A DNA stretch of 64,000 bases, taken from assembly GCA_947626885.1 (NCBI GenBank), contig CANQTX010000001.1, positions 30,741 through 94,740 of the forward strand. Direction: 5' to 3'. The notes under the pieces were generated by a model that did not search any database, was not told where the DNA came from, and saw only the letters and a list, made by a program, of their open reading frames with translations. The DNA is from an uncultured Clostridia bacterium (GTDB lineage: Bacteria > Bacillota > Clostridia > TANB77 > CAG-508). The translations under genes were made by a program, and so were the position numbers. Below, piece after piece: positions 17,634-48,183 of the stretch. Position 1 is the stretch's first letter; each line of letters begins with the position of its first letter.

Positions 17634-17713
17634 AAAATTCTCCTTCTTTTACAACATTTTTATACTCTCTACCATTTTTTATTTTTCATATTTCTTTCAG
17701 TTTTGCTCATATT

Positions 17714-22113: not shown

Positions 22114-22180
22114 TTCTATACTCCATTTTCGAATTTTTCATCATTTCTTACCGTATTTTTCTAATATTTTATTAATATTG

Positions 22181-23221
22181 TTACCATTTCACTTCAATTT
22201 TTAAAACATCTACTAAAAATCGATTCACCCAAATATAGATTATCGGTAAACGCAACTTAAATAATAGATGCACTCCCCAAATACAAATAAATTTTAATCC
22301 CTTTTTAAAACAATGTGATATTTTAAAAAATTGACTATTTCTCCATTCAGCAAAATTCTCATCTAAATATTGCACCACATCTTTTATAACAAGTGACATT
22401 TTTACAGACTTATCATATGAAACCATAAATACCCATGAAATAGCAAGATGTAAGAAAGCCATGGTTGCTAAAACTTCTTTATATGCTTCATATTTACCAA
22501 TTGCTTTAGCATGTTCTTTTGTCACCAATAAATATTTTTTTAAATTTTCAATATCTTGTAAGTTTAAAGAATGAATTTGCGAACTAGAACGCAAATAATA
22601 GTGATACAATACATCTGGTATAAAAGTTAATTTTTGAACACCATCCATATAACTATGAATGAGAAATAATGTATCATTACACCCTCTAAATGGTAAAAAT
22701 TCTAAATGTTTCACTTTTTCTAGTCGATAAATTTTATTCCATAAAGAAGGATTTGCATATACAATAAAATCATCATTCCAATCCACCTGCTTATTGATGG
22801 TACCATATTGTGTCATTTCGGTTGCTACAATTTTTCCTGTATCTAAATCTATTCGATCATATCCACAAAAAGCAATATCTGCATCATTTTCCTTTGCTGC
22901 TTGATACAGTTTCTCTGCCCATGTAACTTCGGGAACATCATCACTATCAATAAACCCTACATATTCTCCTGTGGCATGCTTTAAACCATAAGTACGTGCA
23001 GACCATTCTCCTCCATTTTCTTTATGAAATGTTTTTACTTTATGGGGATATTTTTTCTTATAATCTTCAATAATCTTTGGTGCTGAATCTTTAGAACCAT
23101 CATCAACACAAAGAATTTCTATTTCCTCCAATGTTTGATGAACCAATGCCTCTAAACATCTTGGCACAAATTCTTCTAAATTGTATATTGGCACTACAAT
23201 TGATACTTTTATTGGGTTCAT
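22181..23221 (-). CDS. family-2 glycosyltransferase
   Basis: 346-aa ORF with VSIVVPIYNLEEFVPRCLEALVHQT, CVDDGSKD and FIDSDD motifs. Confidence 0.9.
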   Translation of the reverse strand: MNPIKVSIVVPIYNLEEFVPRCLEALVHQTLEEIEILCVDDGSKDSAPKIIEDYKKKYPHKVKTFHKENGGEWSARTYGLKHATGEYVGFIDSDDVPEVTWAEKLYQAAKENDADIAFCGYDRIDLDTGKIVATEMTQYGTINKQVDWNDDFIVYANPSLWNKIYRLEKVKHLEFLPFRGCNDTLFLIHSYMDGVQKLTFIPDVLYHYYLRSSSQIHSLNLQDIENLKKYLLVTKEHAKAIGKYEAYKEVLATMAFLHLAISWVFMVSYDKSVKMSLVIKDVVQYLDENFAEWRNSQFFKISHCFKKGLKFICIWGVHLLFKLRLPIIYIWVNRFLVDVLKIEVKW

Positions 23222-23224
23222 GAT

Positions 23225-24160
23225 TTATTCCTTTCTGGCTTTTCGTTCTCTTTCGCAATCAATTAATCTCATTTCAAAGGTTTGTTTTGAATTTTTTATA
23301 ATATTATCTAAAGTCATTCCTGAAAAGAAAGATTGTACAGCACATAAGAAAAATAATACACTAATTACCAATGTTGGTATTTTAACAACACCTCTATTCA
23401 GAAAATCAATAAATACTGGTACAAAAAAAGCTAGTCCAATTATTGTTAAAATAAAAGCTAATAAAGTAAAGAATGCCATTGGTTTATAATTTTTATAGAA
23501 TCCAAAAATAGTTTTTAAAACTTTAATACCATCTGGAATTGTGTTCAATTTTGAAGGACTATCTGCCGGCCTATCTCTATAATCAATAATTATATTTTTT
23601 ACTTTCATATTTTTATCTAAACAATGTATTGTCATTTCGGTTTCTAATTCAAACCCTTTAGACATAACAGGAAATGTTTTTACAAATTTATAACTAAAAG
23701 CTCTTAGTCCTGTCATCACATCACGAATATCACTTTTATAAATTCTATTAATTAACGCTCTAACTGTAACATTTCCTATATTATGAAAAGGTCTTTTATT
23801 CTCTGTAAAATAAGTGGAAGAAAGTCTATCTCCTATTACCATATCTACATTTTCTTCTAAAACAGCTTTCACAAATTCTTTAGCAACCTCTGCAGGATAA
23901 GTGTCATCTCCATCTACCATAATATAACATTCAGCATCAATCTCTCTGAACATGGTTCTGATAACATTTCCTTTTCCTTGTCTTGTTTCATATCTTACAA
24001 TTGCTCCTGCCTCTTTGGCAATTTTATCTGTTCCATCTTTAGAATTATTATCATACACATATATAACTGCCTCTGGTAATTCTCTTCTAAAATCTTCTAC
24101 TACCTTTCTTATGGTTTTTGCTTCATTATAACATGGTACTAAGACTGCTACTTTGTCCAT
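23225..24160 (-). CDS. polyprenyl-phosphate glycosyltransferase (GtrB/CsbB/DPM1-like)
   Basis: 311-aa ORF. GT2 core (AVLVPCYNEAKTI, YDNNSKDGT, VDGDDTY) followed by two C-terminal TM helices. This is the architecture of Und-P-sugar synthases. Confidence 0.85.
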   Translation of the reverse strand: MDKVAVLVPCYNEAKTIRKVVEDFRRELPEAVIYVYDNNSKDGTDKIAKEAGAIVRYETRQGKGNVIRTMFREIDAECYIMVDGDDTYPAEVAKEFVKAVLEENVDMVIGDRLSSTYFTENKRPFHNIGNVTVRALINRIYKSDIRDVMTGLRAFSYKFVKTFPVMSKGFELETEMTIHCLDKNMKVKNIIIDYRDRPADSPSKLNTIPDGIKVLKTIFGFYKNYKPMAFFTLLAFILTIIGLAFFVPVFIDFLNRGVVKIPTLVISVLFFLCAVQSFFSGMTLDNIIKNSKQTFEMRLIDCERERKARKE

Positions 24161-24287
24161 ATTCTTGTCTCCTTTTTCTTAACTTTCTTTCATTTTCTCT
24201 CTCTCTATTTTATCCCTTGTTATTTTTTTACAGTCAAACTAGATAACTGTTTTCTTTTACTTTTGTTGTTATGTATTTTATGTTTTA

Positions 24288-24779
24288 TCACAATGATTCT
24301 TTTTTAAAAATAAATAATTTACTAAATACAAAATTTAATATAATAACAACTATATTAGCAATCACTTTCATAATAACATCATTAAAATGAATTATAACAG
24401 CAAAATTCATAAGTCCTATACTAATAGCTTCCGTCACCAATCGACAGCTCACAAAAGATATGATTTCTTTTATAAACGCCTTATGCGTATTCGTTTCACT
24501 TTGAAAAACACATATTTTATTTGTAAAATAAGCAAAAACAACTGCTGCTATAAAAGCAATGATTTCACTCATATTAACTTTTAAAGATTCATTAAATCCT
24601 CTAAATAATATTTGACTACAAAAAATATAAGCTAAAATGTTAACCACAGTAGATAAGGCACCAAAAACAAGATATCGCATTCCCTCTAAATGATTTTCAT
24701 ATATATCTGCTAATTTTCCTAATTTAATTTTCCTTGCTATTTCTAAAAAGAATTTTTCAATTGCTTCCCAGACCTTCAT
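24288..24779 (-). CDS. GtrA-family small membrane protein (putative lipid-linked sugar translocase)
   Basis: 163-aa ORF with 4 TM helices and the YLVFGALSTVVN...FTNKICVF pattern. It is adjacent to the GtrB-like gene. Confidence 0.8.
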   Translation of the reverse strand: MKVWEAIEKFFLEIARKIKLGKLADIYENHLEGMRYLVFGALSTVVNILAYIFCSQILFRGFNESLKVNMSEIIAFIAAVVFAYFTNKICVFQSETNTHKAFIKEIISFVSCRLVTEAISIGLMNFAVIIHFNDVIMKVIANIVVIILNFVFSKLFIFKKESL

Positions 24780-28890: not shown

Positions 28891-31227
28891 CTATATTTCA
28901 TAAATTGCTTTATCAATTCTAATTAAACAATTATTCGATATTGGACTAAAATTAATATTATAATAAGGATCTGGTTTTGCTAATACGCTGTGCCACTTTT
29001 TCTTAAAAGCTTGTACCTCTCTCTTGTAAGCAAAAATATCTTCATCTTCTATTGTTTCTCTTTCATCTGATATATCTCTATCATTCATTTGTACATATGG
29101 TGTATAAACATTAAGATATCCCTTCTCTCTTAATTTAAGTGAAAAATCTACTTCATTAATTTTTTCAAAATGAATCTCTTCACTCATACCTTGCACTTCT
29201 TCAAAAACTTCTTTTCGATACATCCTACATAAGCTAGATATACAACTCATATTAGAAACAAATTTATCCTTTGCACGATACCCATTATAATTTCCTCTAT
29301 ATAGATATTCCGCAAATTCACCGATACCATAAACAATTCCCGCATGCTTAATGGTTCCATTGGGATAATTTACTTTTACACCTACACATCCAACATCTTC
29401 TCTTTGCGCAATACCTATCATACTTTCTAACCATTCCGGTGTTACCACTCTTTCATGCCTATCCAACTCGACAATAAATTGTCCATCTACATGTTTTACT
29501 GCAAAATTCATTAATTGAGAATAATTTGCTTTTTCAAAATCACAATTCGCTATTTCTGTTTCACTCACTTGACCATTAATCATATCTTGTACAGTTATGG
29601 TATTATTAGAAAACGTTTGATCTGCATAATGCCACACTTTTATATTGGCATGCTTCTCTAATTGCTTATAAAAGGTAAGTGTTTCTTTATTATCAGTGGC
29701 ATTGTCAATAACATCAATTTCAAAATTATCATAGGTTGTTTTTTCTAAAATTGTTTTAATACATTCTTGCAAATGTATAATATCATCTGTATTAACAATA
29801 ACAATGTTCACTTTAGGATGATTTTTCACAGAATAATTTACTGTATAAATTCCATAATATTCTTTGTGTCGTTTAGCAATAGCTTTTATTCCCATTCTAT
29901 CTAAATGATGTTGAACCGCTTTAGCACCTGCTTCATATGCATATAGTTTTGCTTCTGAATTTCCTGCAGTTGATCCAGGATGGATTCTCCAATGGTACAA
30001 GACTTTAGGAATATGGTAAATCTCATTTGCTTTTGCCAATTCTGTAGCTCGCAATATAATATCAAAATCTTGTGCACCATCATAATCACTTCTAAATCCT
30101 TCTAATTGATCCATTAATTCTTTTTTGAAGATACTAAAATGACAAATGTAATTTCCTCCTAATAAAAAATCGGGAGAATAATCAGGTTTAAAATGTGGAT
30201 CATATCTTGGCTTATCAATCGCCTCTATTTTATCTTCATCTGTATAAATAAATCTCACTTCAGGATGAACATTAATACAATTTACAACTTCATATAAAGC
30301 ATTCAATGGCAACAAATCATCATGATCTAATAAAGCAATATAATCACCTGTTGCAAGTTTTAACGCTTCATTAGAATTCCCAGAAATGCCCTTGTTTTCG
30401 CCAATAAAAGTATACTTGATTCTTTTATCTTTCGCACACATACTTTCTATTTCTGTAAGCCTCTCTGGACTCCCATCTGCTAAACATAATTCCCAATTGG
30501 TATAAGTTTGATAATATACCGTAAACAGTAACTCTCTAAAAAATTTAGTTGGTGTATTATATAAAGGAATAATAATACTAATTTTAGGTTTTATAGTAAA
30601 GTGCTTTGAAGCTTCCTGTTGTTCTTTGATATCCGCCAAAGAACAATCATTTAACTTTCCCCAAAATTCATAGGGATCTGAATCCGATTGTAAAATAGCA
30701 TTTTCTATTTGTTCTCTTCTTTTTTTCCATATCTTCTCTAATACTAGCCAATATTCTGCTGTTTCTTCATCCGTAGCATTTCTTATATTTTGTACTCTTA
30801 AAATTTCTTTTTTCTCTGCACGTTTTTTATCAATTTTCTCTCTTCTTCTAGTTCCAAGAGGACAAAATCGATCTAATAAACTAAGACCATTACCAAAATT
30901 TAAAATATGAATGATTCTCCTGATTTTACTAACAATTTTCCAAGAAGTCGTATTTGCCATTGCTCTTACTTCATTTGCATAGTCAACAACTTTTGCTCTA
31001 GCATCCTCTAATTCTAAATGCAAATCATGATTCTGTTTTTCTAATTGTTCTACACTTTCCTGAAGAGCAAACGCTTGCTTTTTATAAATTTCTCTTTGTC
31101 TATTTTGTTTTTGTAACTGTTTTTCTAGATTTCCTATAGTTAAATAATGTCTAAAGAAAATATCATGCACTTCATAATCAAATGTTCTATCTCTTAAATC
31201 TTTTTCTAATAATTCAAATAAATCCAC
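28891..31227 (-). CDS. double-GT2 glycosyltransferase with an N-terminal coiled-coil extension of about 185 aa (paralog 3 of 3)
   Basis: 778-aa ORF. Residues about 30-90 are heptad-like (NLEKQLQKQNRQREIYKKQAFALQESVEQLEKQNHDLHLELEDARAKV). The same double GT2 core follows (KISIIIPLYNTP, LADGS, LLDHDD; KVNIVIVN, IDNAT, EVDFSLK). Confidence 0.9.
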   Translation of the reverse strand: MDLFELLEKDLRDRTFDYEVHDIFFRHYLTIGNLEKQLQKQNRQREIYKKQAFALQESVEQLEKQNHDLHLELEDARAKVVDYANEVRAMANTTSWKIVSKIRRIIHILNFGNGLSLLDRFCPLGTRRREKIDKKRAEKKEILRVQNIRNATDEETAEYWLVLEKIWKKRREQIENAILQSDSDPYEFWGKLNDCSLADIKEQQEASKHFTIKPKISIIIPLYNTPTKFFRELLFTVYYQTYTNWELCLADGSPERLTEIESMCAKDKRIKYTFIGENKGISGNSNEALKLATGDYIALLDHDDLLPLNALYEVVNCINVHPEVRFIYTDEDKIEAIDKPRYDPHFKPDYSPDFLLGGNYICHFSIFKKELMDQLEGFRSDYDGAQDFDIILRATELAKANEIYHIPKVLYHWRIHPGSTAGNSEAKLYAYEAGAKAVQHHLDRMGIKAIAKRHKEYYGIYTVNYSVKNHPKVNIVIVNTDDIIHLQECIKTILEKTTYDNFEIDVIDNATDNKETLTFYKQLEKHANIKVWHYADQTFSNNTITVQDMINGQVSETEIANCDFEKANYSQLMNFAVKHVDGQFIVELDRHERVVTPEWLESMIGIAQREDVGCVGVKVNYPNGTIKHAGIVYGIGEFAEYLYRGNYNGYRAKDKFVSNMSCISSLCRMYRKEVFEEVQGMSEEIHFEKINEVDFSLKLREKGYLNVYTPYVQMNDRDISDERETIEDEDIFAYKREVQAFKKKWHSVLAKPDPYYNINFSPISNNCLIRIDKAIYEI

Positions 31228-32443
31228 ATATTCCCAAATTCCGAAAAGCTTTTAATAAAGACTCTTTTCCCAGTTTTTCTAAACAATTTGTGGTATTTAA
31301 TAATGCCCTATAATAAATATACTCTACCGGAATATTATATTCTATCCACTCTTGATCAAATACTTTTAGGTTTCCCTCTATATAAAAACAATTCTTAGGA
31401 ATTAAATCAATAAATCCCCTTCTCAAAAAATGCAAACTTTTCAATTTTTCTGGATGATACATTTGAATACATTTTTTTATGGTGAATAGTTGCTCTTTTT
31501 CCTTATGATATGTATCTTTTCTTTGGGTAATCATTGCTTTTTCTTTTTGAATGTCCTTTATTAAGTCTTCATAAGTACAAGTATCTTTATTTAACACCTC
31601 TTTTAAAATTTGAAACTTCTCCATAAACTCTTCTATGGTACTTGTTTCTGAAAGTACAATATCAAATCGTTTATGCTTAATAAACTGACTGATAATTTGA
31701 CCATCTTTTTTATTTTCAATAACATCAATTCCCATTTGTCTGAGCTCTTGTATATTTCTTTCCATTTGCTCCATATGGTTCTGTGCTTGTTTATCAGCTA
31801 CTTTTTTAATAACAACATCTTCTTTAATTAATGTCATCATACGATATTCGGGTTTTCGATAATTAGTAAATGCCACATATTTGATATCTGTATTAATTGG
31901 TTTTTGTGATACTTCTATAAAAAACGAATTGGCAAATTGATTAACATATGTCTTATCTTCTTTTAACAACTGTTGATAAACATCATTCTCATTAAGATGT
32001 ATAATTGTATTTTGAGGATATACCGCAAAATTCCTTGTTATATCTTCCTCCGTTAAACTATAGTCTTCACTATAAATTAAATTAGCCATTTCAAAATTAG
32101 GAAAAACATAATAGAATTTTGTAAAATGCAATTGATTTTGCTCAAAAAGAGATAGCAACGTATTTTTACTAATATCTTTTTCCAAAGCATTTGTAGTATT
32201 CCAATTTTTTAAACCAAATTGATTATCTATAGCAATTAATATTTTACCATCCTCTTTGATATAATTTTTAGCAAGTAACAATTTTTGTTCAAATTCTGAT
32301 GAATATTTCCCTATTATTGTTATATAATCATATTGTTTGTCTAATTTTTCGTAACCATTTTCTATATGAAAAATAGAAGCATTCTCTTTAAAAGGATACC
32401 ATAATAAAATATTTTTTTTAAATTCCAACAATCTTGCTTCCAT
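31214..32443 (-). CDS. two-lobed protein: degenerate methyltransferase-like N-lobe plus protein-kinase/APH-like C-lobe (WbdD-like candidate chain terminator)
   Basis: The ORF track starts at a GTG (32467). The ATG at 32441-32443 has an SD (gaaagga) 7 nt upstream, so I place the start there. The 3' end overlaps the next gene start by 14 nt. See findings for motifs. Confidence 0.75.
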   Translation of the reverse strand: MEARLLEFKKNILLWYPFKENASIFHIENGYEKLDKQYDYITIIGKYSSEFEQKLLLAKNYIKEDGKILIAIDNQFGLKNWNTTNALEKDISKNTLLSLFEQNQLHFTKFYYVFPNFEMANLIYSEDYSLTEEDITRNFAVYPQNTIIHLNENDVYQQLLKEDKTYVNQFANSFFIEVSQKPINTDIKYVAFTNYRKPEYRMMTLIKEDVVIKKVADKQAQNHMEQMERNIQELRQMGIDVIENKKDGQIISQFIKHKRFDIVLSETSTIEEFMEKFQILKEVLNKDTCTYEDLIKDIQKEKAMITQRKDTYHKEKEQLFTIKKCIQMYHPEKLKSLHFLRRGFIDLIPKNCFYIEGNLKVFDQEWIEYNIPVEYIYYRALLNTTNCLEKLGKESLLKAFRNLGICGFI

Positions 32444-32501
32444 GAAAAATTCCTTTCTTTTAGACACATTCTTACATTCTTTACATCTTCTATTGATATC
32501 T

Positions 32502-33797
32502 TTAAATTTTACGTACTGTAATATGAGAATCTAACCTTACTATACCAACTGTATTTTTAGTTGTAATAACTTCTATTAACAAAGCATCATATTTTCTACT
32601 TAAAACTTCTAGTTCTCCTTTTAGATTAAATCTTGTACAACTAAAAGATAATGTATATTTTCCAACAGCTATTGGTAATTTTTGTTTAAATTCTGCAATA
32701 ACAATATCGCCTTTTTTGAAATTTCCTGTTAACACCTTTTCAATCTCTGAATTGGTACCAGCTATATCATTTCCATTAAAATCTTTTACTGTCATTGTAA
32801 ATATTGGATCTTTAACATCTTTATAAAACTTTACTTTCGATTTTAAAATAATCGTATCAGCGTTATCAAAAACATTAATAGCATTTCCCTCTAAATCAAA
32901 CATTCCATAGTCAATTACTTCAGCGTCCTTATTACCATACTCAATAATATTAGGATTTTGATTAAATTTTTCTTTCCAAGTTTCAGAATCATCCATTTTG
33001 ATAGAAATTTCCTCTAATTGCTTATCTAGTTGTTCTTCTCTTTGGACATCTTCAGGACTTAATCCTACAATAATCTTTTTATAACGATTCACTCCATCTT
33101 TAACAGAACCATCAAAAGTTTTTCTACCATTTTCGATAATAATAGCTCTATTACAATTTTTCAAAACATCTGTCACATTATGTGTAACAAATATAATTGT
33201 TTTACCACTATTTTTAAATTGTTCAAACTTTTTAAAACATTTTAATTGAAATGCCATATCTCCTACAGATAGTACCTCATCTACAATTAAAATATCTGGA
33301 TTAACATTAATTGCACAAGCAAATGCCAAACGAGCAAACATACCTGAAGAATATGTTTTAACAGGTTGATATAAATGATCTCCTATGTCTGCAAAATCAA
33401 TAATTTCTTGCTCTTTTTCTTTAATTTCCGCATCTGTTAGTCCCATAACTTGTCCATGTTGATAAATATTCTCTATTCCGGTTAAATCTGGATTAAACGC
33501 AGCTCCTAATTCTAATAAAGAACTTATTTTTCCATTCACTTCAATTTCCCCAGAAGTCGGACTCACAACTCCCGTAATCATTTTTAATAAAGTAGATTTT
33601 CCGGCACCATTCTTTCCTAAAATTCCTAATACTTCTCCTCTTCGAATTTCAACATTAAAATGATCCATCGCTCTAAACGTACCATGTTTCTTATAGCCTG
33701 GAACAATCGCCTCTAATAATCGGTCCTTTTTCCTATCAAACATCTTATATTCTTTAACTAAATTGGTTATTTTAATGACTACATCATTATCCTTCAT
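32502..33797 (-). CDS. polysaccharide ABC exporter ATP-binding protein, Wzt/TagH type, with a C-terminal extension domain
   Basis: Walker A GKNGAGKST, signature YSSGM, Walker B ILIVDEVLSVGD, plus a beta-rich C-terminal domain of about 150 aa. I place the start at the ATG at 33795-33797 (MKDNDVVIKITNL, SD gagagg 7 nt upstream). The 25 extra codons in the ORF track are encoded by a hairpin arm. Confidence 0.9.
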   Translation of the reverse strand: MKDNDVVIKITNLVKEYKMFDRKKDRLLEAIVPGYKKHGTFRAMDHFNVEIRRGEVLGILGKNGAGKSTLLKMITGVVSPTSGEIEVNGKISSLLELGAAFNPDLTGIENIYQHGQVMGLTDAEIKEKEQEIIDFADIGDHLYQPVKTYSSGMFARLAFACAINVNPDILIVDEVLSVGDMAFQLKCFKKFEQFKNSGKTIIFVTHNVTDVLKNCNRAIIIENGRKTFDGSVKDGVNRYKKIIVGLSPEDVQREEQLDKQLEEISIKMDDSETWKEKFNQNPNIIEYGNKDAEVIDYGMFDLEGNAINVFDNADTIILKSKVKFYKDVKDPIFTMTVKDFNGNDIAGTNSEIEKVLTGNFKKGDIVIAEFKQKLPIAVGKYTLSFSCTRFNLKGELEVLSRKYDALLIEVITTKNTVGIVRLDSHITVRKI

Positions 33798-33819
33798 ATT
33801 ATATCCTCTCTGTTCCTTT

Positions 33820-33950
33820 TGTCCTTTTAGGAACGTTAGTTTTTGGACATTTATGACCCAATAGGGACACATGTTATTGGATGAGAAAAAATTTTATATT
33901 CGTATAAAATTGGACTAAAATGTCCAAAAACTAACGTCCCTAAAAGGACA
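33820..33950 (-). repeat. 131-nt element: 32-nt inverted repeat arms (33820-33851 and 33919-33950) around a 67-nt loop
   Basis: 31 of 32 positions are complementary. The single exception is a G-U wobble on the minus (sense) transcript but an A-C mismatch on the plus strand. It overlaps the stop codon of the GT2 gene and ends 22 nt before the wzt start codon (about 9 nt before its SD). Confidence 0.85.
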
Positions 33951-34923
33951 AAAGAGATACTTTCTTTTTTATGTTAAATAATATTCTAGCTACTATAGGT
34001 ATGTTTAAAATTATAAAATTCTCCATTTTATAATTCCATGTTTCGTATTGATACAATTTAAAAAACAATTTCCAATTCTTTACATTTAAATATTGTTTTT
34101 TTTCCAAATGTTCAAAATATTGCAAACTTTGTCTATTAAGAATTCTAATTTTTTCTTCTTTAAATTTTTCTTCTTGTTGTATAAAAACTGAAAAATGTTG
34201 CTTTTTTACTTCTATAAATAAATTTCTCATTTCATCAAAATTAGAAATTTTATCTGATTTTCTTTTAGAACCAATATGATTGTTTTTATGTTGTCTATAT
34301 TGAATTAAAGGTTCTTCTAAATAAGCTATTTTTCCTTCTTGACTCGCTATTAATGCTATCCAATAATCATGCAACACATATTTACTACTGTGAGGTAATG
34401 GTAAAGCCTTGGTAATAATTTCTTTTTTACAAAGCATGGTACAACCAGTTATAAAATTATTTAAGTACAAACTTTCAAAATGATTATACTGTTTTATTTT
34501 ATGATACAATCCTTTAAATCTCCAATATGATGGTTCAATTATGTGTAGATCACTATCTACAATTTCTAAATCTGTATAAACAAGTTCTGCGTTTGTTTCT
34601 TTTATTTTTTCTATGGATTTTTCTATTTTCTCCTTTTTCCATATATCATCTTGATCACAAAACATAAACCATGGACTCTCCACTTTCTGGAGTAAAAATT
34701 CAAAGTTCTTAATAACACCCATATTTTTTTCTTGATAAAAATAATAAATTCTACTGTCTTTTTGTGCGTAATTCTCTATAATACTTCTCGTATTATCAGA
34801 AGATTTATCATCAGAAATAAGTAGTCTAAAATCCATATAAGTTTGACTTAAAATACTCTCAATCTGCTCTGCCAAATATTTTTCGCCATTATATGTTGCC
34901 ATTATAATATCAACTTTTGCCAT
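33940..34923 (-). CDS. family-2 glycosyltransferase
   Basis: VDIIMATYNGEKYLAEQIESILSQTY, SDDKSSDNT and CDQDDIW motifs. I place the start at the ATG at 34921-34923 (MAKVDII, SD agaaagg). The upstream ATG in the ORF track has no SD. Confidence 0.88.
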   Translation of the reverse strand: MAKVDIIMATYNGEKYLAEQIESILSQTYMDFRLLISDDKSSDNTRSIIENYAQKDSRIYYFYQEKNMGVIKNFEFLLQKVESPWFMFCDQDDIWKKEKIEKSIEKIKETNAELVYTDLEIVDSDLHIIEPSYWRFKGLYHKIKQYNHFESLYLNNFITGCTMLCKKEIITKALPLPHSSKYVLHDYWIALIASQEGKIAYLEEPLIQYRQHKNNHIGSKRKSDKISNFDEMRNLFIEVKKQHFSVFIQQEEKFKEEKIRILNRQSLQYFEHLEKKQYLNVKNWKLFFKLYQYETWNYKMENFIILNIPIVARILFNIKKKVSLLSF

Positions 34924-34977
34924 GAAATTTACCTTTCTTTTATTGCTCTCTTTTTGGTTAGCCATACGTGTTTTTTG

Positions 34978-35781
34978 TTACAATACATCTGCAAAGTCTT
35001 TTCTTGTCTTTTTAAATACGGCATTTCCCCATAGGAATAATAAAATGGTAATAACCCAAAAAATAATAGAATACATACCGTAATTTTCTGTAATAATTGT
35101 TGAATCCTTCATAAAAGCTTGTCGAAATCCTTCTACTAAATATGTAAATGGAAATGCTTTAAAAAACTTTCTCCAAGCATCTGAAAGCATAGTTAAATTC
35201 CAAATAATAGGAGTAAACCACATAAATAATTGCATAAGAATATTTAACAATTGTGCAAAGTCTGGTACAACTGTGGTTAAAGCCGATGTAAATCTTGTTA
35301 ATGCAATAATAAATGTTAAAGCACAAAATAAAATATATACTACTGTTAGGAAATTCGGGATATAACGAAAGATAGAAGCTACAACAATGGCTATACAAAT
35401 TAAAAATATTCCTATAAAACTGGAAGATATGATTGATATAATAGGAATAATATCTACCGGAAAAACAACCTTTTTTACTAAATAACTATAATTTCTAATA
35501 GAATTACTTGCTGTAAGAATAGCATCACTACAGAATAACCACATTGCCATTCCTGGTAAAAACCATACAACATAAGGGTACTCTCCATTACTATTGGATT
35601 TTAAGATGTATTGAAATACAATTACATAGGTTAACATAAATACAAATGGCTGTGCAAACCCCCAGATTGTACCAAGCCCTGTACCAGCAAATCGGTTTCT
35701 AAAATCGTTCTTTCCTAATTGCATTGTTAATTTTCTGTTTTTGAAAAGTATTTTTAAAAATTCCATTCTTCTACTTAACAT
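34978..35781 (-). CDS. polysaccharide ABC exporter permease, Wzm/TagG type (ABC-2)
   Basis: 267-aa ORF with 6 TM helices and the ABC-2 N-terminal pattern LGKNDFRNRFAGTGLGTIWGFAQPF. The exact start is uncertain (no clear SD). Confidence 0.88.
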   Translation of the reverse strand: MLSRRMEFLKILFKNRKLTMQLGKNDFRNRFAGTGLGTIWGFAQPFVFMLTYVIVFQYILKSNSNGEYPYVVWFLPGMAMWLFCSDAILTASNSIRNYSYLVKKVVFPVDIIPIISIISSSFIGIFLICIAIVVASIFRYIPNFLTVVYILFCALTFIIALTRFTSALTTVVPDFAQLLNILMQLFMWFTPIIWNLTMLSDAWRKFFKAFPFTYLVEGFRQAFMKDSTIITENYGMYSIIFWVITILLFLWGNAVFKKTRKDFADVL

Positions 35782-36014: not shown

Positions 36015-37181
36015 TTAGGTTTCCATCTTTTCTTTTATAATATCTACAATTATCCTAGAGGCATTCTCATTTTCTACAAACCCCATTTTATCGATAAAAG
36101 ATTTTGTTTTTTGTAGAAATGTTTCTTCTGAAAAATGGCGAATATTGTTGATTAATTCCTCACTGGTTAATGCTATTGATTCTGAAAAATCCTTCCAATC
36201 AAAATAAAACTTTCTTTCACTTTTTTTATAATTTTCTAAATCTTTTGCTAATAGAAAGGTTGGTTTATTTAATCTTAAAAAAGTAAATATAATACCTGAA
36301 TAATCAGATATCAATACATCTGATATGGCAATTAATTCCTGCATATCGGGATATAACGTAGCATTTAATATTCGTTCATTATAGGTAATTTCCTTACTTT
36401 CAGCTTGTACAATAGGATGTAATCTGATTAGTAAAACAAACTTACCTCCAAATTTTTTTTCTAATTCATCACAACACTTCTGATAATCAAATGTATATAC
36501 TGATAAATCGGACTGATTTCTAAAAGTAGGTGCATACAATGCAATTTTATAATGATTATCTATATGAAAATACTGATAAACTTTATGTTTTATTGCTTCT
36601 GTAGGATGAAAAATAATATCATTTCTTGGAATACCACATTTTAATATTTTTCCATCATACCAAAAAGCATTTCGAAATAAATGTTCCTGAAAGGTATTAC
36701 TAGTAAACATTAAGTCTGTTCTTTTGGCATCTTGTTTTGCCGCTTTTACATATTCAGGACTTAAACTATCTTCTGCATCAGCTTCTATGTATTTATTAGG
36801 TAATTCTCCGTGCCAAGTTTGAATATAAAATTGATTCTTCTTTTTTCTAATGCCATTACCAACTCTAACATTATCTATCCAAATTTTAGCAGTGGCTAAT
36901 TCCCAAAAAGCTTTTATACTACCAATTTTCACTTTTCTTATTTGGTGCGGTATTTCCTCTTCTAGATTGTTTACGAGCCATACCATATCACAATCAATTC
37001 CTTGCTTTATGATTTCTTCTGCTATATATTTAGGATTACAACCATATCCTTTGCCTGAAAAATTATCAAAAACAATTTTATTATTTCTTACCCTACCAAA
37101 TAAGTAACATATATTTTTTATTATATATTTTCCCAAACCATATAAATCCGCTTGCAGTTTTTTTATTTTTTCTACAATCAT
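36015..37181 (-). CDS. CDP-glycerol glycerophosphotransferase family protein (TagB/TagF-like)
   Basis: 388-aa ORF with YIQTWHGELPNK, LYAPTFRN and ISDYSGIIF motifs characteristic of the TagB/TagF family. Confidence 0.88.
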   Translation of the reverse strand: MIVEKIKKLQADLYGLGKYIIKNICYLFGRVRNNKIVFDNFSGKGYGCNPKYIAEEIIKQGIDCDMVWLVNNLEEEIPHQIRKVKIGSIKAFWELATAKIWIDNVRVGNGIRKKKNQFYIQTWHGELPNKYIEADAEDSLSPEYVKAAKQDAKRTDLMFTSNTFQEHLFRNAFWYDGKILKCGIPRNDIIFHPTEAIKHKVYQYFHIDNHYKIALYAPTFRNQSDLSVYTFDYQKCCDELEKKFGGKFVLLIRLHPIVQAESKEITYNERILNATLYPDMQELIAISDVLISDYSGIIFTFLRLNKPTFLLAKDLENYKKSERKFYFDWKDFSESIALTSEELINNIRHFSEETFLQKTKSFIDKMGFVENENASRIIVDIIKEKMET

Positions 37182-37228
37182 GCTCTACTCCTAATATCAG
37201 TCAATTTTTTCTATAGGTTTATTATATT

Positions 37229-37654
37229 TTATTCATCAAACTCATTACAAAAAGCAATAAACTTATCTCTTAGTTTGGTAGATGAAACATTTTTGGTATA
37301 TGGAAAATAAATAATTTTAATTCCTTCTTCAGCAAATTCTTTTTCGTATTGGTTCCATTTATCTGTATGATACCAATCATCTCCTACAAACATAATCGAT
37401 GCACCTAGCTTTTTACACATTGTTAATTTGTCCATATCGTATTGTGGTACAGCTGCATCTACATATTTACATGACCTTACAATTTCTATTCTTTCCTCAA
37501 AAGGAATGATAGCATTTTTTCCTTTGTAAGAAACTAATTCGTCTACTGTAACACCTACAATTAGCTTATCACACATTCCTTTTGCATTTTTAAATAAATT
37601 TAAGTGTCCCATATGAAATAAATCATATACACCTGCCGTATACCCTATTTTCAT
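37229..37654 (-). CDS. tagD: glycerol-3-phosphate cytidylyltransferase
   Basis: 141-aa ORF. GYTAGVYDLFHMGHLNLFKNAK (HXGH nucleotidyltransferase motif), with the size and C-terminal VSSTKLR motif typical of TagD/TarD. Confidence 0.92.
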   Translation of the reverse strand: MKIGYTAGVYDLFHMGHLNLFKNAKGMCDKLIVGVTVDELVSYKGKNAIIPFEERIEIVRSCKYVDAAVPQYDMDKLTMCKKLGASIMFVGDDWYHTDKWNQYEKEFAEEGIKIIYFPYTKNVSSTKLRDKFIAFCNEFDE

Positions 37655-37699
37655 GAATTTTTCTCCTTTCTATCTTCTTTATATAGTATCACACATGCT

Positions 37700-38905
37700 T
37701 TATATTTTTTTTCTATAATAATTGTATATCTTTTCTATATCTTCTATTTTTCCATTTCCCTGTATCGGAAATTCACCGTAAGTTTTAATATATTTGTATA
37801 AATACCAAAGTACTTTATATTTATTATACATTCTATAATAATTTCTATTATATTTTATACGATACTGATGATCTTTCGCATATCTGAGTGTATTATCATT
37901 CAATGTTATAATAAACGGTCCTGCTCCATATAATACAGGAAATAACGAAATATGACAATCTAAATACGTTACATCTAAATGTCTTATTTCATCTATTAAG
38001 AATTGGTGTCTATTTACTCTTATGGTCTTATTGATAATTAAGAGTTTTGTTTCATCATTAGCAAATAATAAATTATGTGGTAATGTACCACTAATGGCAG
38101 CTACTACATTACTTTTTTTCATAATTTGTATTTGTTGCTTCACAGTATATTTTTCTGGTGCTATAATTTTAAAGCCATTGTGTTGCAACCACTTTTCAAT
38201 TGATTTTTCTCCTATTTCTTTTTTATTAGCTGTTTTTAAATGCTGTCTAGAAAAATATACTTTATCATAAGGTACTTCTGTATCTTCTACATTCTCTTTT
38301 ATAGTATCAAATATAAATTTATATTCCTTTGTATAATATTTCCCAGGATATAAAGCACTTTCGGGTATAATAATTTTTTTAAATTTTGTTGGTTGATGAA
38401 TGCTTATTAAGTTTTCTTTCGCAATTCCTAGTAAATTTAAAAATTCTAAATAATGTCCCGAAATTTGATTGTTTTTTCCTTTCTCAACAATATAAGCAAT
38501 TTTTACATTTTCTTTTTCTTGTAATTTTTGGATAACATACCATAATCTACTAACTACATCTATTAAAAAATGCCCCCAATGTGCGATAAAAAAATTCATA
38601 TATATTACAGTTTCATCCCTTTTTATTAATGCCTTTTCCTCAATATCATATTTTCCTCTTACTCTATCATTCATATGAAATGCAACTTGCGCAGATGCTT
38701 CTACATAGTTTCCCTTGCTATCTACTACACCACCGCTACCCCATAATGTACCATAAGGGTTACTCTTTGTATTTACAGGAAGTAACACACCTTCTTCTAT
38801 TTCTAAGACAGCTAATTGTTTATCCACATAATATTGTTTTTGTGCTAATGCTTCATATTCTTCTCTAGCAATATCATCCATATATTCAAAATGATATTTT
38901 TTCAT
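37700..38905 (-). CDS. GT61 (DUF563) family glycosyltransferase
   Basis: The HWGHFLIDVVSRLWY motif and overall size fit the family. I place the start at the ATG at 38903-38905 (MKKYHFEY, SD aggaagga upstream). Confidence 0.8.
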   Translation of the reverse strand: MKKYHFEYMDDIAREEYEALAQKQYYVDKQLAVLEIEEGVLLPVNTKSNPYGTLWGSGGVVDSKGNYVEASAQVAFHMNDRVRGKYDIEEKALIKRDETVIYMNFFIAHWGHFLIDVVSRLWYVIQKLQEKENVKIAYIVEKGKNNQISGHYLEFLNLLGIAKENLISIHQPTKFKKIIIPESALYPGKYYTKEYKFIFDTIKENVEDTEVPYDKVYFSRQHLKTANKKEIGEKSIEKWLQHNGFKIIAPEKYTVKQQIQIMKKSNVVAAISGTLPHNLLFANDETKLLIINKTIRVNRHQFLIDEIRHLDVTYLDCHISLFPVLYGAGPFIITLNDNTLRYAKDHQYRIKYNRNYYRMYNKYKVLWYLYKYIKTYGEFPIQGNGKIEDIEKIYNYYRKKI

Positions 38906-38956
38906 AATTTTTGTATTCCTTCCTAACAACATCTACTCAAATAACAATTTATTTTT

Positions 38957-40420
38957 TTAGATATTATTTTTTTTCTCTTTTTTATGAGACTTTTGAATAT
39001 AGTCTAATACCGTATAAAACTCATCAATCTTCCACAAATAAGATAGTCCAAAGTATACAATGATACCAACCATAATTTGTAATATAATGGTTACCATAGC
39101 CGTTAGATGCAAATACGTAATGCTATAAGCTACGATTCCCATAATAACTGCTATAACAAAGCATTGTAATAAGTCCTTCATTTGTTCTTTATACCCATAA
39201 TTCATGAGTTTTCTATTAGGATATATATTTACCATAATTGCTACAATTGTATATAATACTGCAGAATAAGCTATTGCTAAAACACTAATTCGCATTGTTA
39301 GTAATAATAAAATTAAGCCAAAGATTTTCTTAATCACTTCCATTTTTAAGAAGATATCTCCTCTGCCTAAAGCTTTAATTGCTTGATTATTGGCTGTAGA
39401 AATTGGCATTGCCATTTGTGTTAAACAACTAATTTGCATAAATGGAACAGCTAACAACCACTTGTCTGTTAATAACAATTGTATTAATGGTTTTGCAATT
39501 ACCAATAATCCTATCATCATAGGAAAAATGATATATGAACTAATGCGAATGGCTTTTCTTGTTAATTGTTTTACTTGTTCTTTTTTATCATTTACATTGG
39601 AGATTGCTGGAAATAAAACACTTCCAATTGTAACATCTATATTGGTAATAATCAAGTCTGGAAATTGATTTCCCCTTTTATAATATGCTAAGTCTTCTGA
39701 AGTATATATCCTTCCAATGATCAATGATCGTAACTCACCATAACCTACACTAATAAATTCAGCAAGAGTTACCTTTGTACCATATTGCATCATACGTTTT
39801 GCACTTTCTGCTGAAAATAATGCTTTTGGTCTCCAAGGAACCGTTATCCATAAAACCATGGTATCCACAATTGAATTAACCAGATATTGTACAACTAAAG
39901 CCCAAACACCACAGCCTTTACAAGCCATTAAAATTCCTATTCCTCCAGAAAGTATGGTTCCTATAATAGTAGAAAAGAAAAACTTTTTAAAAATTAAATG
40001 TCTTGACACATAAGCATGTTGTATCGAATTCACTGCTGTTATAGGCAATTTTAGTGCTAAAATTCTTAATACAAAAGACAAATCTTCATTTTTATAAAAT
40101 TTTGCAATGTATGGTGCACTGATAAATAATACCATATAAAGAAAAATAGAAACAACTAAACTACAGTAAAACATAGTAGAAAAATCTTCTTCATTGGCTT
40201 CTTTTTTTTGAATTAAAGCAGAGCTAAAACCACTTGTTACAAATACATTGGCTAGGGTTATAAATACCAAAACCATTGAAACAATTCCATAATCTTCTGG
40301 CATTAGAATACGTGCCAAAACAATTGTTACAATGAAAGAAACTCCTTGAGCACAAATTCTTTCTGCAAATTTCCAAAATAAACTTGATACTACTTGTTTT
40401 TTTATATTTTTTTCTTCCAT
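38957..40420 (-). CDS. Wzx-type oligosaccharide-repeat-unit flippase (MOP superfamily)
   Basis: 487-aa ORF with about 14 TM segments. The N-terminus SSLFWKFAERICAQGVSFIVTIVLARILMPEDYGIVSMV is typical of polysaccharide-biosynthesis flippases. Confidence 0.88.
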   Translation of the reverse strand: MEEKNIKKQVVSSLFWKFAERICAQGVSFIVTIVLARILMPEDYGIVSMVLVFITLANVFVTSGFSSALIQKKEANEEDFSTMFYCSLVVSIFLYMVLFISAPYIAKFYKNEDLSFVLRILALKLPITAVNSIQHAYVSRHLIFKKFFFSTIIGTILSGGIGILMACKGCGVWALVVQYLVNSIVDTMVLWITVPWRPKALFSAESAKRMMQYGTKVTLAEFISVGYGELRSLIIGRIYTSEDLAYYKRGNQFPDLIITNIDVTIGSVLFPAISNVNDKKEQVKQLTRKAIRISSYIIFPMMIGLLVIAKPLIQLLLTDKWLLAVPFMQISCLTQMAMPISTANNQAIKALGRGDIFLKMEVIKKIFGLILLLLTMRISVLAIAYSAVLYTIVAIMVNIYPNRKLMNYGYKEQMKDLLQCFVIAVIMGIVAYSITYLHLTAMVTIILQIMVGIIVYFGLSYLWKIDEFYTVLDYIQKSHKKEKKNNI

Positions 40421-40458
40421 ATATTATATATTCCTCTTATCTTTTCCTTTTTCTCTCA

Positions 40459-41436: not shown

Positions 41437-41491
41437 TTTCTTTTACCTCTCAATAAAATATTTTCTCATTTTATACGTTTTTTCAGTTAAT

Positions 41492-41521
41492 ATTGTACGA
41501 TAACCCATTACTTTTTGTCAA
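41492..41521 (-). promoter_or_regulatory. near-consensus sigma-A promoter directly upstream of the ATA-start GT2 gene
   Basis: Minus strand reads TTGACA - 18 nt - TACAAT. Confidence 0.6.
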
Positions 41522-41547
41522 CTTTCTTTTCTATCAAGCAAATATTT

Positions 41548-42549: not shown

Positions 42550-42576
42550 ATGTATTTCCGTTAGTATTATTCTAAT

Positions 42577-43359: not shown

Positions 43360-43402
43360 TGTCTAGCTTTGTCCCTCCTCTCTTCCATAGTAAACTTCTT
43401 TT

Positions 43403-44449: not shown

Positions 44450-44469
44450 TTCTTATTTGCTTCTTATAT

Positions 44470-46629: not shown

Positions 46630-46638
46630 ACTTTTCTC

Positions 46639-48173: not shown

Positions 48174-48183
48174 AACTCTATCC

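Follow-up and report, generated by a model that had tools for sequence, protein, structure and literature searches.

The locus examined here raises the question of what is made by an ORF of 409 aa (31214..32443 in the ORF list; all features below are on the minus strand) in the window, the whole stretch of 64,000 nucleotides that was analysed. A sequence-only reading had called the product unannotatable, had described it as a methyltransferase-like lobe followed by a kinase-like lobe, and had proposed that it is a WbdD-type terminator of glycan chains. We confirmed that the ORF is genuine and that every sequence feature in that reading is present. By sequence reading, an AGGA Shine-Dalgarno sequence (32451..32454) lies 7 nt 5' of the ATG at 32443, the position to which the starts of the homologues correspond; an alternative GTG start at 32467 lacks such a sequence. 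The protein matched no entry in Pfam or NCBIfam and its sequence matches in the PDB were noise, so that unannotatable was an accurate description. An identical protein is encoded in five metagenome contigs.

As had been claimed, the ORF follows a wzt gene with a cap-reader-type domain. The gene (32502..33872) encodes an ABC ATPase (Pfam ABC_tran, E 1.8e-23) with a C-terminal carbohydrate-binding Wzt_C domain at residues 311-447 (E 1.5e-33). A Wzm ABC-2 permease is encoded at 34978..35781 (Pfam ABC2_membrane, E 6e-17), and Rml genes are also found within the window. Among 80 related loci, a family member stands beside a Wzt_C gene in 72, a Wzm gene in 66 and double-GT2 genes in 79.

Folds of the two lobes

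The C-lobe (residues 169-400, 31244..31939) was predicted to adopt a protein-kinase-like fold of the APH/choline-kinase type, as judged from an AlphaFold2 domain model, Foldseek and sequence alignment. The model of the C-lobe alone had a pLDDT of 90.3, and its best 50 Foldseek matches were all APH, Cph, MPH, LicA, Rio2 or homoserine kinase (probability ~1.0, TMq 0.27-0.47), thus bearing out the proposed kinase-like nature of this lobe. WbdD was not among these 50. The Lys, Asp, Asn and Asp residues previously put forward as catalytic proved to be invariant or nearly so in an alignment of 85 homologues: K213, in the sequence VVIKK, and D346 and N351, in FIDLIPKN (D-x4-N), are invariant, and D363, in FDQEW, is at least 90% conserved. 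A conserved His, H223, occupies the helix expected to bear the alpha-C Glu. In its helical part the lobe is extended by about 22 residues, KDIQKEKAMITQRKDTYHKEKEQ (31490..31558), that are specific to the window; the 16 homologues in the alignment all lack them, the relative P0121 shows a gap of 23 residues, and pLDDT there falls to 73-84. We consider that the C-lobe probably is a kinase acting on a glycan terminus; the most likely function of the protein is to write, by its kinase alone, a terminal phosphate cap onto a wall glycan.

The N-lobe (residues 1-168, 31940..32443) has a class I SAM-methyltransferase fold, based on alignment, the Pfam domains of homologues and Foldseek. The AlphaFold2 model of the whole protein (pLDDT 90.9) retrieved the methyltransferase structures 3dli, 3cc8 and 2p7i along with APH-type kinases, so that structure prediction and fold search recovered both proposed lobes; the longest alignment among the Foldseek matches listed for this whole model was with WbdD (4azs, 367 columns). 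The suspicion that the N-lobe is degenerate and has lost its Gly-rich SAM loop was also correct. A segment of about 55 residues from motif I to beta3 is missing, leaving a gap where homologues in alignment A1 carry ILEIGxNxGEIT, and it is in those homologues that Pfam methyltransferase domains were found. Because this segment is missing, the N-lobe would be a pseudo-methyltransferase.

A gene split after the kinase lobe

The sequence-only reading had treated the 409-aa ORF as a complete, stand-alone gene. This view did not hold when the downstream ORF and the relatives were considered. The downstream ORF (778 aa, 28891..31227, GTG start) contains, in order, a post-kinase helix, a coiled coil, an amphipathic motif, a linker and the modules GT2a and GT2b. 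The 1149-aa relative P0121 spans both window ORFs collinearly: its residues 1-398 are 48% identical to the 409-aa protein and its residues 404-1149 are 64% identical to the 778-aa protein over 774 aligned positions. Two further relatives, L008 and L009, have a single ORF of 1137 and 1136 aa, respectively, at the same position, and a split after the kinase lobe was found in none of the 80 genomic homologues.

Comparison of frames with the fused relatives placed the lesion in a zone at 31244..31253, where TTATTAAAAGCTTTTCGG carries one extra nucleotide, inserted either in its run of A (31250-31253) or in its run of T (31244-31247). In frame A the sequence is ..ESLLKAFRNLGICGFI and then a stop, in frame B it is KLFGIWEYVDLFELLEKDL directly after a stop, and the fused relatives have ..EELLRKFGLLDYVDLFEELEKEL. 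Removal of one base at the junction gives a gap-free match to these relatives. Beyond the lesion, codon counts and alignments delimit an out-of-frame tail of nine codons, RNLGICGFI, followed by a TGA stop (31214..31243); the tail starts with CGG and has no counterpart in any homologue aligned. We found no second lesion in either half. The first agrees with the family at 43 of the 49 highly conserved columns, the deviations being conservative or due to the deletion or the frameshift, and the second aligns with P0121 from end to end. Taken together, it is very likely that the two ORFs are the 5' and 3' parts of one ORF6(O7)-type gene split by a frameshift. The 14-nt overlap between them (31214-31227) is present as reported, but its interpretation as translational coupling did not stand: read in the other frame, the overlap specifies sequence that the family conserves and, by this comparison, it appears to be the scar of the 1-nt insertion and not a designed coupling. 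The split also occurs in five independent assemblies besides the window, with a junction identical base for base. Since all contigs carrying it are at least 99.98% identical, the lesion may be recent, without selection having acted on it.

The coiled coil that had been noticed in the downstream glycosyltransferase was borne out. Residues ~28-92 of the 778-aa ORF (30952..31146), the putative ruler, show a strong hydrophobic heptad a/d pattern, residues 40-100 contain neither Pro nor Gly, and there is a weak Pfam long-coiled-coil match to residues 30-89. Every complete homologue has such a region, whereas the 409-aa protein has none of its own. It is followed by TSWKIVSKIRRIIHILNF (30895..30948), a conserved NSxSWKI..LR motif identified by alignment, which helix calculation describes as a cationic amphipathic helix (hydrophobic moment 1.47, net charge +4) and which we regard as a candidate anchor to the membrane or to a partner. 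The family also includes stand-alone members of 500-620 aa, beside which the polymerase is a protein of its own. In these the motif forms the extreme C-terminus, and the C-terminus of one of them, P0002, is 51% identical to residues 1-107 of the 778-aa ORF (E 2e-26). The polymerase part consists of two GT2 modules (GT2a, residues 213-465; GT2b, residues 466-778; 28894..30591; Pfam Glycos_transf_2, E 1.6e-33). The intact form in relatives is thus one polypeptide of about 1140-1190 aa with the order methyltransferase-fold lobe, APH/choline-kinase-like lobe, coiled coil of about 65 residues, cationic amphipathic motif and two GT2 modules, and the SAM-binding segment is lost from the methyltransferase-fold lobe in the subfamily of the window protein.

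Relationship to known chain terminators

Since these comparisons make the 409-aa ORF the 5' part of what was one terminator-ruler-polymerase ORF, its architecture appears to be that of ORF6(O7) and WbbB, with the terminator fused to the polymerase, and not that of WbdD, where the terminator is separate. ORF6(O7) from Klebsiella pneumoniae is a methyltransferase-kinase/coiled-coil/GT2-GT2 terminator-polymerase that has been demonstrated to phosphorylate the glycan terminus, and its D441A variant neither phosphorylates in vitro nor supports export in vivo (Kelly et al., J Biol Chem 2024, PMC11231755). Our family HMM matched ORF6(O7)-N with 96 bits (E 8e-26, Z = 1e6). In a directed test, the ORF6 HMM matched the window protein with 24.9 bits (E 4e-10), aligning collinearly from residue 34 onward. 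With hhalign, the family matched ORF6(O7) beyond the methyltransferase core with a probability of 91% (E 1e-6) and weakly when only the kinase lobe was used (19%, E 1e-3); the post-methyltransferase region alone did not reach significance against ORF6(O7) at Z = 1e6. In the published alignment, taken from OCR text and ending at the D-x4-N motif, FIDLIPKN corresponds to GFIDAVPQN, which holds the catalytic D441.

The reconstructed window gene has the module order of ORF6(O7) and shares with it PDYK(L/M)P, ANSF(L/F)I, RKxxYxxxT and FIDxxPxN. The kinase lobes of both are APH/AmiN-like and not Src-like, and the GT2 modules are homologous and collinear (GT2a, 36% identity, E 2e-22; GT2b, 27%, E 5e-15). 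Both have orthologues with and without fused glycosyltransferases, and both adjoin Wzm and Wzt. On the other hand, ORF6(O7) proteins occur in proteobacterial or cyanobacterial hosts and the window protein in a Gram-positive gut Clostridium. The window gene is frameshift-split, its coiled coil spans only some 65 residues, and its family has no room for the Ig-like CBM that ORF6(O7) carries between kinase and coiled coil. Moreover, its methyltransferase lobe lacks motif I, because of which no methyl transfer is expected.

WbdD from E. coli O9a and K. pneumoniae O3 likewise combines an N-terminal methyltransferase fold with a kinase fold and a coiled-coil ruler, caps the non-reducing end and is coupled to a CBM-bearing Wzt (PMC3482155), and the stand-alone family members share its arrangement. 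However, the WbdD kinase is Src-like, and WbdD is bifunctional whereas the window protein lacks the SAM loop. Membership in the WbdD family was rejected, as the family profile retrieved no WbdD sequence from the PDB, nor did the C-lobe among its best 50 structural matches. The proposed role as a chain terminator is retained as the best reading. WbbB from Raoultella terrigena and K. pneumoniae O12 also unites terminator, ruler and polymerase in one polypeptide (discussed in PMC11231755), as do P0121, L008 and L009, but its terminator is a beta-Kdo glycosyltransferase and not a kinase.

A clostridial comparison is offered by the S-layer glycan locus of Clostridium difficile SLCT-11 (Ox247; orf10-orf12), which encodes a rhamnose-rich, ABC-exported glycan and a Wzt with a Wzt_C-like domain (PMC6254364). 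Its glycan terminates in 2,3-cyclophospho-Rha (PMC6254364), a precedent for phosphate capping of a glycan that a clostridium exports by an ABC transporter. This glycan is linked to the S-layer protein, unlike the wall glycan considered here, and no kinase was assigned in that study (PMC6254364). By annotation alone, orf10, located beside wzt and labelled 'AdoMet_MTase / glycosyltransferase' (PMC6254364), resembles the present family. Such a label would be expected if a protein of this family had kept its methyltransferase lobe intact and its glycosyltransferases fused.

Proposed mechanism and competing explanations

Taking these results into account, we lean towards the view that the 409-aa ORF encodes the first 400 residues of a terminator-ruler-polymerase of the ORF6(O7) type, whose gene has been cut by a 1-base insertion, that the mechanism is phosphate capping, and that both pieces are still made. 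In the intact protein, the GT2 modules would work at the membrane, lengthening a wall glycan that is linked to undecaprenyl and probably contains rhamnose, and the coiled coil would set a fixed distance between the kinase and the membrane. A chain reaching the kinase would receive a phosphate from ATP on its non-reducing terminal sugar, with D346 presumably acting as catalytic base and N351 and D363 as metal ligands. This phosphate would stop further extension and may also be the tag that Wzt_C of the adjacent ABC transporter requires for export. With motif I missing from the methyltransferase lobe, the predicted cap is phosphate and not methyl-phosphate. In the source strain, the 409-aa kinase piece would be detached from the ruler. 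Both pieces are most likely still made, the second by ribosomes that terminate on the first and reinitiate at the GTG, which lies 14 nt before the stop. Capping may then be uncoupled from the ruler and control of chain length looser, which is the weakest step of the proposal. That the split allele still functions as two pieces is a tentative view, held at slightly less than even confidence.

Rather unlikely, yet to be taken seriously, is that the frameshift is a recent inactivating one. The 409-aa fragment would then be inactive through misfolding or want of an anchor, translation of the downstream coiled-coil glycosyltransferase would be poor or nil, and the polymer would be absent or altered. 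None of 80 homologous loci shares the split, the contigs bearing it are essentially clonal, the lesion is a 1-nt homopolymer insertion, and the GTG restart codon has only a weak GGGAA upstream. In addition, part of the coiled coil is required for kinase folding and trimerisation in WbdD (PMC3482155) and for proper kinase folding/oligomerisation in ORF6(O7), where it is retained for activity (PMC11231755), so that the 409-aa fragment may be inactive. The locus may also tolerate the loss, because two paralogous double-GT2 genes lie downstream. Against this, neither half has acquired further damage, the strain was recovered from five samples, and a polymer that lacks a cap and stalls at a CBM-gated exporter usually does harm; such arguments speak only weakly against a very young null. 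If ribosomes shifted by +1 at UUU-CGG, with tRNA-Phe moving from UUU to UUC during a pause over CGG in the A site, some full-length protein would be made along with free kinase. Slippage of this kind in the P site at a 'hungry' codon is well established (prfB, Ty1, AGG-AGG), and CGG, the rarest codon in the window (2 of 19,096 codons, one at 31243), stands directly 3' of TTT at the shift point, with a +1 product, ..LLKAFGIWEYVDLF.., that is gap-free against intact relatives. Nevertheless, we consider such recoding improbable: a rare codon is expected by chance after frame loss, no Shine-Dalgarno-like stimulator lies upstream of the shift point, no stable RNA structure was found at the site (z = +1.0), and none of the relatives conserves the arrangement.

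It is very improbable that the kinase lobe acts on another substrate, such as a small molecule, as in APH and choline kinases, or a lipid-linked intermediate. Its nearest folds are indeed antibiotic and choline kinases, but in relatives the lobe forms one protein together with ruler and polymerase, and it is linked almost constantly to Wzt with Wzt_C and homologous to a demonstrated phosphorylator of glycan termini. An autonomous WbdD homologue with a purposeful translational coupling to a separate coiled-coil glycosyltransferase would account for the order of the lobes, the long 4azs alignment and the overlap itself. We give this very little credence, given the absence of a sequence relationship to WbdD in the profile search, the failure of the kinase lobe to retrieve it, the missing coiled coil and the family sequence encoded by the overlap in the other frame; it is contradicted by P0121 covering both ORFs and by the gap-free junction after removal of one base. 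That the extra base is an assembly or sequencing error, the gene being intact in the organism, is hardly credible. The site is a short homopolymer, and the metagenome contigs have a coverage of about 2.6-2.9x, as read from the cov_ values in their names. However, five independent assemblies and the window agree at the junction, and runs of A4 and T4 are not error-prone in short-read chemistry.

The presence of kinase, ruler and polymerase in one protein has so far been proven by experiment in Klebsiella only. The family described here, in which we favour phosphate capping, is common in uncultured gut Clostridia, where it nearly always adjoins Wzm and Wzt with Wzt_C.

A methyltransferase-like lobe without its SAM loop and a kinase-like lobe

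Concerning the minus-strand ORF at 32443..31214 (409 aa), the sequence-only reading had described an unannotatable two-lobed protein and proposed a chain terminator resembling WbdD, the enzyme that terminates the O9a polymer of E. coli. The ORF was present in our ORF list, and the proposed ATG start was right. An AGGA Shine-Dalgarno sequence lies 7 nt 5' of the ATG, and homologues start at equivalent positions; a longer GTG start at 32467, which has no Shine-Dalgarno sequence, was rejected. "Unannotatable" was also a fair label, because the protein belongs to no Pfam or NCBIfam family and the PDB sequence search gave only noise. The Pfam scan returned sub-threshold noise (Sigma70_r1_1, A2M_bMG2), the NCBIfam scan returned no family, and the PDB sequence matches were de novo TIM barrels aligned to a low-complexity helical stretch.

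Large protein databases contained 147 close relatives, and an exhaustive scan of cluster representatives gave 1165 relatives at E <= 1e-3. The relatives are mostly 500-620 aa in length, and many harbour Pfam class I SAM-methyltransferase domains. In the alignments, the family begins with an N-terminal extension and a methyltransferase domain containing motif I (ILEIGxNxGEIT), continues with a conserved second domain and a coiled coil, and ends with a C-terminal NSxSWKI..LR motif. The target differs in that ~55 residues including motif I are absent, as in many relatives, and in that it ends immediately after the second domain. A genome scan confirmed 193 relatives. The best 80 of these, from species-representative genomes, were used for a locus survey, and all were from Clostridia-type genomes.

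The AlphaFold2 model of the target, based on an 85-sequence alignment, displayed two lobes with good confidence (pLDDT 90.9, pTM 0.88). When the whole model was compared with the PDB using Foldseek, the top 50 matches were all either phosphotransferases of the APH, capreomycin, macrolide or choline kinase type or class I SAM methyltransferases. With the C-lobe alone (residues 169-400, model pLDDT 90.3), the top 50 matches were all kinase-like phosphotransferases (probability ~1.0, TMq 0.27-0.47), and APH, choline kinase, MPH and Rio2 were retrieved. The call of a methyltransferase-like lobe followed by a kinase-like lobe thus passed the fold search, and the catalytic residues named from the sequence were found to be conserved. 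Among the 85 sequences, K213, D346 and N351 are invariant, and D363-Q-E-W is retained in at least 90%. The D-to-N and N-to-D spacings of the target, 5 and 12 residues, are those of APH enzymes. An insertion of ~22 residues in the kinase lobe (KDIQKEKAMITQRKDTYHKEKEQ, 31490-31558, minus strand) is absent in all aligned homologues, and the model confidence is lower there.

The N-lobe (residues 1-168) has lost the SAM loop. In the motif I region, the ~55-residue gap of the target stands against ILEIGxNxGEIT in intact relatives and VLEIGAGCGAIT in ORF6(O7), the methyltransferase-kinase terminator/polymerase of K. pneumoniae O7; the SAM-binding Gly-rich loop of ORF6(O7) (G91, G93; E/DxGxGxG) is therefore missing. 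A recognisable motif I was absent by regex in about 52 of the 80 loci (best 80 of 193), including nearly all GT-fused forms, so that a "kinase-only" subclass seems common.

Relationship to WbdD and ORF6(O7)

Homology to WbdD was not borne out. When a profile built from 17 family members was run against the complete set of PDB sequences (E <= 10), the matches were exclusively generic methyltransferases, with neither WbdD nor a kinase of any sort among them. In the whole-model Foldseek search, WbdD (4azs) gave the longest alignment among the matches listed (367 columns) with low scores (E 2e-3, TM 0.22), and neither WbdD nor Src-type kinases were among the top 50 matches to the C-lobe. The kinase of WbdD is a eukaryotic (Src-like) protein kinase, whereas the matches to the target C-lobe are of the APH/choline-kinase type. 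In WbdD, moreover, the terminator is a protein on its own that bears a C-terminal coiled coil and recruits a separate polymerase. In contrast, the target has no coiled coil and its closest relatives are fused to the polymerase; more distant family members display the WbdD arrangement.

ORF6(O7) consists of an N-terminal methyltransferase, a kinase domain, an Ig-like CBM, a coiled coil and two GT2 modules (Kelly et al. 2024, PMC11231755). Its kinase, 223 residues and previously unannotated, has the APH-like AmiN as its nearest structure and was described as quite different from that of WbdD (PMC11231755). The product is a methyl-phosphate on the terminal rhamnose, and the D441A mutation abolished phosphorylation and export (PMC11231755). 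This type of terminator was recognised only in 2024, from proteobacteria and cyanobacteria, and orthologues "either end after the coiled-coil or continue into GTs" (PMC11231755). D441 lies in GFIDAVPQNII (D441A primer, SI Fig. 9, PMC11231755) and the target has GFIDLIPKNCF, FIDxxPxN with the catalytic Asp being common to both. PDYK(L/M)P, ANSF(L/F)I and RKxxYxxxT are further motifs shared by ORF6(O7) and the clostridial family.

For quantitative comparison, six published ORF6(O7)-type sequences were transcribed, giving a partial alignment with noisy OCR that ends at D-x4-N. The clostridial family HMM recognised Kp ORF6(O7)-N with 96.4 bits (E 8e-26, Z = 1e6), and the ORF6 HMM recognised the target with 24.9 bits (E 4e-10 in a directed test), collinear over residues 34-306. 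Beyond the methyltransferase core, profile-profile comparison (hhalign) of the two families from PDYK onward gave a probability of 91% (E 1e-6). The post-methyltransferase region alone was not significant against ORF6(O7) at Z = 1e6, and the hhalign match of the kinase lobe alone was weak (probability 19%, E 1e-3), with the OCR alignment stopping at D-x4-N. The downstream GT, a 778-aa coiled-coil double-GT2 ORF (28891..31227, minus strand), aligned collinearly by BLASTP with both GT2a (residues 766-1140; 36% identity, E 2e-22) and GT2b (residues 1141-1414; 27% identity, E 5e-15) of ORF6(O7). With this sequence support at both ends, the reconstructed gene of the window follows the module order of ORF6(O7) except for the CBM. 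ORF6(O7) carries the Ig-like CBM between kinase and coiled coil, whereas the target and its intact relatives have none; here the heptad region starts ~30 residues past the end of the kinase lobe (~residue 400).

The mechanism class is therefore already known and does not represent a new kind of system. What is new is the occurrence of an ORF6(O7)-type terminator in Gram-positive gut Clostridia, no Gram-positive description having been found in the literature searched, together with a widespread subclass whose methyltransferase lobe is vestigial.

The second GT2 module of the downstream GT, whose Pfam support is below threshold, has LDRHE at residues ~589-591 (29455-29463, minus strand), and the same DRH is found in P0121, a single-chain relative of 1149 aa. 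The counterpart is LNNDT in the two paralogues of this GT in the window and LNDDT in ORF6(O7), where it is the mutagenised NxD metal site. DRH may be a DxH variant or may mark an inactive module. Three long family members (P0185, P0202 and P0251) have the terminator fused to WbsX and/or RgpF (rhamnan synthesis) domains rather than to GT2 pairs, indicating that the terminator-ruler cassette has been combined with different polymerase types.

A terminator-polymerase gene split by a frameshift

The 14-nt overlap between the target and the downstream GT had been taken as translational coupling. Comparison of the junction frames with intact relatives revealed that it is the scar of a 1-nt insertion. 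Frame A of the window reads ..ESLLKAFRNLGICGFI* and the +1 frame *KLFGIWEYVDLFELLEKDLRD.. (asterisks, stop codons), whereas intact relatives read ..EELLRKFGLLDYVDLFEELEKELRD..; if a single base is taken out of the A run (31250-31253) or of the T run (31244-31247), the frame becomes gap-free again. Out-of-frame reading begins with CGG, a codon used only twice among the 19,096 codons of the window. P0121, the closest cluster representative, is 48% identical to the target over its residues 1-398, and its residues 404-1149 align end to end with the downstream GT (64% identity, 774 aligned positions). In the two closest genomic relatives, L008 and L009 from uncultured Clostridium MAGs, this position is occupied by one ORF, of 1137 and 1136 aa, respectively. 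In addition, the C-terminus of P0002, the closest stand-alone relative, matches the N-terminus of the downstream GT (51% identity, E 2e-26). The coiled coil that follows the kinase is thus on the same polypeptide in P0121, L008, L009 and P0002, whereas in the window it is on the next ORF, in the +1 frame. The fusion of the terminator to a coiled coil and two GT2 modules is ancestral. In the reconstructed protein of the split gene, DLFELLEKDLRD is a helix.

Complete genes in the best 80 of the 193 related loci were either stand-alone (~480-630 aa) or fused (~900-1270 aa), and none was split in the manner of the target. The identical split was present in five metagenome contigs. Because these are 99.98-100% identical to the window, the split is reproducible but has no evolutionary depth. 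A search of JGI metagenomes with a junction pattern allowing A3/A4 and T3/T4 gave zero matches of any kind, intact or alternative. The split is most simply a mutation, and a naturally split allele of an ORF6(O7)-type gene is new.

In terms of sequence, both halves of the split gene have no other lesion. Of 49 highly conserved columns, 43 are preserved in the target; where it deviates, the change is conservative or can be attributed to the deletion or the frameshift. An in-frame GTG lies 14 nt 5' of the stop, so that termination-reinitiation could yield the coiled-coil GT. A free 409-aa kinase would be without the first post-kinase helix, which drives trimerisation in WbdD (PMC3482155) and was kept in ORF6(O7) in order to ensure folding (PMC11231755). 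We lean towards an allele that provides two expressed pieces, with capping uncoupled from the ruler, and consider a recent null allele nearly as likely. A further reading invokes recoding, in which low-efficiency +1 slippage at UUU-CGG would set the ratio of free kinase to the full-length kinase-ruler-polymerase, the latter carrying the junction peptide LLKAFGIWEYVDLF. If so, translation would tune terminator:polymerase stoichiometry and with it glycan chain length. No codon in the window is rarer than CGG, but UUU-CGG has no visible stimulator and there is no RNA structure able to stimulate frameshifting (z = +1.0), and we regard recoding as very improbable. For annotation, the junction carries a warning that an overlap of 14 nt and a GTG restart can be the mark left by a frameshift.

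The wall-glycan locus and the predicted cap

The upstream neighbour had been read as a Wzt with a cap-reader domain, and Pfam agreed, identifying an ABC ATPase with Wzt_C (E 1.5e-33); the Wzm neighbour matched ABC2_membrane (E 6e-17). Among the best 80 of the 193 related loci, 72 have an adjacent homologous Wzt_C, 66 have Wzm and 79 have a double-GT2 gene, the exceptions being mostly on short contigs. The terminator gene is thus linked to a CBM-bearing exporter. Loss of motif I did not co-vary with the type of Wzt_C, as both motif classes hold both identity classes (40-48% and 57-74%). Identity between the window (28891-35781) and the five loci L008, L009, L006, L025 and L034 is 63-89% for Wzm, the Wzt NBD and Wzt_C, 25-52% for the terminator lobes and coiled coil, and 35-39% for GT2b; against L008, Wzt_C is 89% and the kinase lobe 45% identical. 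In these sequences, conservation of the Wzt_C reader domain far exceeds that of the putative writer. Decay of the terminator specific to the window was rejected; terminator, coiled coil and GT2b outpace Wzm/Wzt in all pairwise comparisons, making the faster divergence a property of the family.

All genes in the window are on the minus strand, with a G+C content of ~26-34%. A second, Wzx-type set (36015-49320) adjoins the ABC module and contains a Polysacc_synt_3 (Wzx-like) flippase, several of the many GT2 genes of the region, DUF6077 (found in the syntenic locus L006 too), an initiating Bac_transf, DegT and Polysacc_synt_2. This set and the ABC module are separated by TagD-like and TagF-like genes and a GT61, an arrangement that suggests a two-part wall polysaccharide decorated with glycerol-phosphate. 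A GtrA-like gene (24288-24779), a GT2 with a hydrophobic C-terminal stretch (23225-24160) and a 708-aa DUF7657/DUF7654 protein (19987-22113) form a cluster (19987-24779) that looks like a three-component extracytoplasmic glycosylation system for the polymer. Three consecutive large ORFs (604, 696 and 423 aa; 13654-18985) in the glycan region had no Pfam match at E <= 1e-5. Genes for dTDP-rhamnose (58513-61981), encoding RmlB-like dehydratase, RmlA-like nucleotidyltransferase and RmlD-like reductase, support a rhamnose-containing polymer, and a 224-aa ORF (59544-60218) may be RmlC. Adjoining the glycan locus are three tandem ChW-repeat (clostridial hydrophobic W) proteins of 571, 715 and 832 aa (51402-58207), candidate wall-glycan-binding surface proteins. 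A conserved housekeeping block of a PrkC-like PASTA Ser/Thr kinase, a PP2C phosphatase and an RlmN-like radical-SAM gene (7293-11156) places the region on a chromosome, in a Gram-positive, and the ChW proteins, TagF-like gene and PASTA kinase fit a Clostridium-type organism.

Based on homology to ORF6(O7) and analogy to WbdD (PMC3482155), the GT2 modules would elongate a lipid-linked glycan, probably with rhamnose. The heptad region of ~65 residues and the cationic amphipathic TSWKIVSKIRRIIHILNF motif that follows it would fix the membrane-to-kinase distance. The kinase would then phosphorylate the terminal sugar, which would both stop extension and make the ligand for Wzt_C. ATP-dependent phosphorylation of the non-reducing end is the predicted activity of the clostridial family by this analogy, and since motif I is gone, the cap is expected to be phosphate rather than methyl-phosphate.

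In Gram-negative O antigens, ABC export with coupled chain termination is a well-understood process; capping and length measurement of Gram-positive wall and S-layer glycans are largely without assigned enzymes. Kinase terminators of the ORF6(O7) type are common among uncultured gut Clostridia, nearly always in a Wzm/Wzt(Wzt_C)/double-GT2 module, and were found in stand-alone, GT-fused and, in the window, frameshift-split forms. For annotation and for Gram-positive glycan biology, this provides a name and a testable activity for a family not covered by Pfam or NCBIfam outside the methyltransferase core, along with the prediction of a naturally occurring "kinase-only" subclass whose methyltransferase lobe would be scaffold only. 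The S-layer glycan of C. difficile SLCT-11 has a terminal 2,3-cyclophospho-rhamnose, and its exporter is a Wzm/Wzt pair with a Wzt_C-like domain; orf10, beside wzt, is annotated only as "AdoMet_MTase / glycosyltransferase", with no kinase assigned (PMC6254364). It may be that a large clade of terminators from gut Clostridia, those whose methyltransferase lobe is vestigial, writes a phosphate cap in plain or cyclic form; this would account for the cyclophospho-rhamnose of SLCT-11. The family, compared with orf10 by annotation alone, is a candidate for the enzyme that adds the phosphate cap to the C. difficile S-layer glycan.
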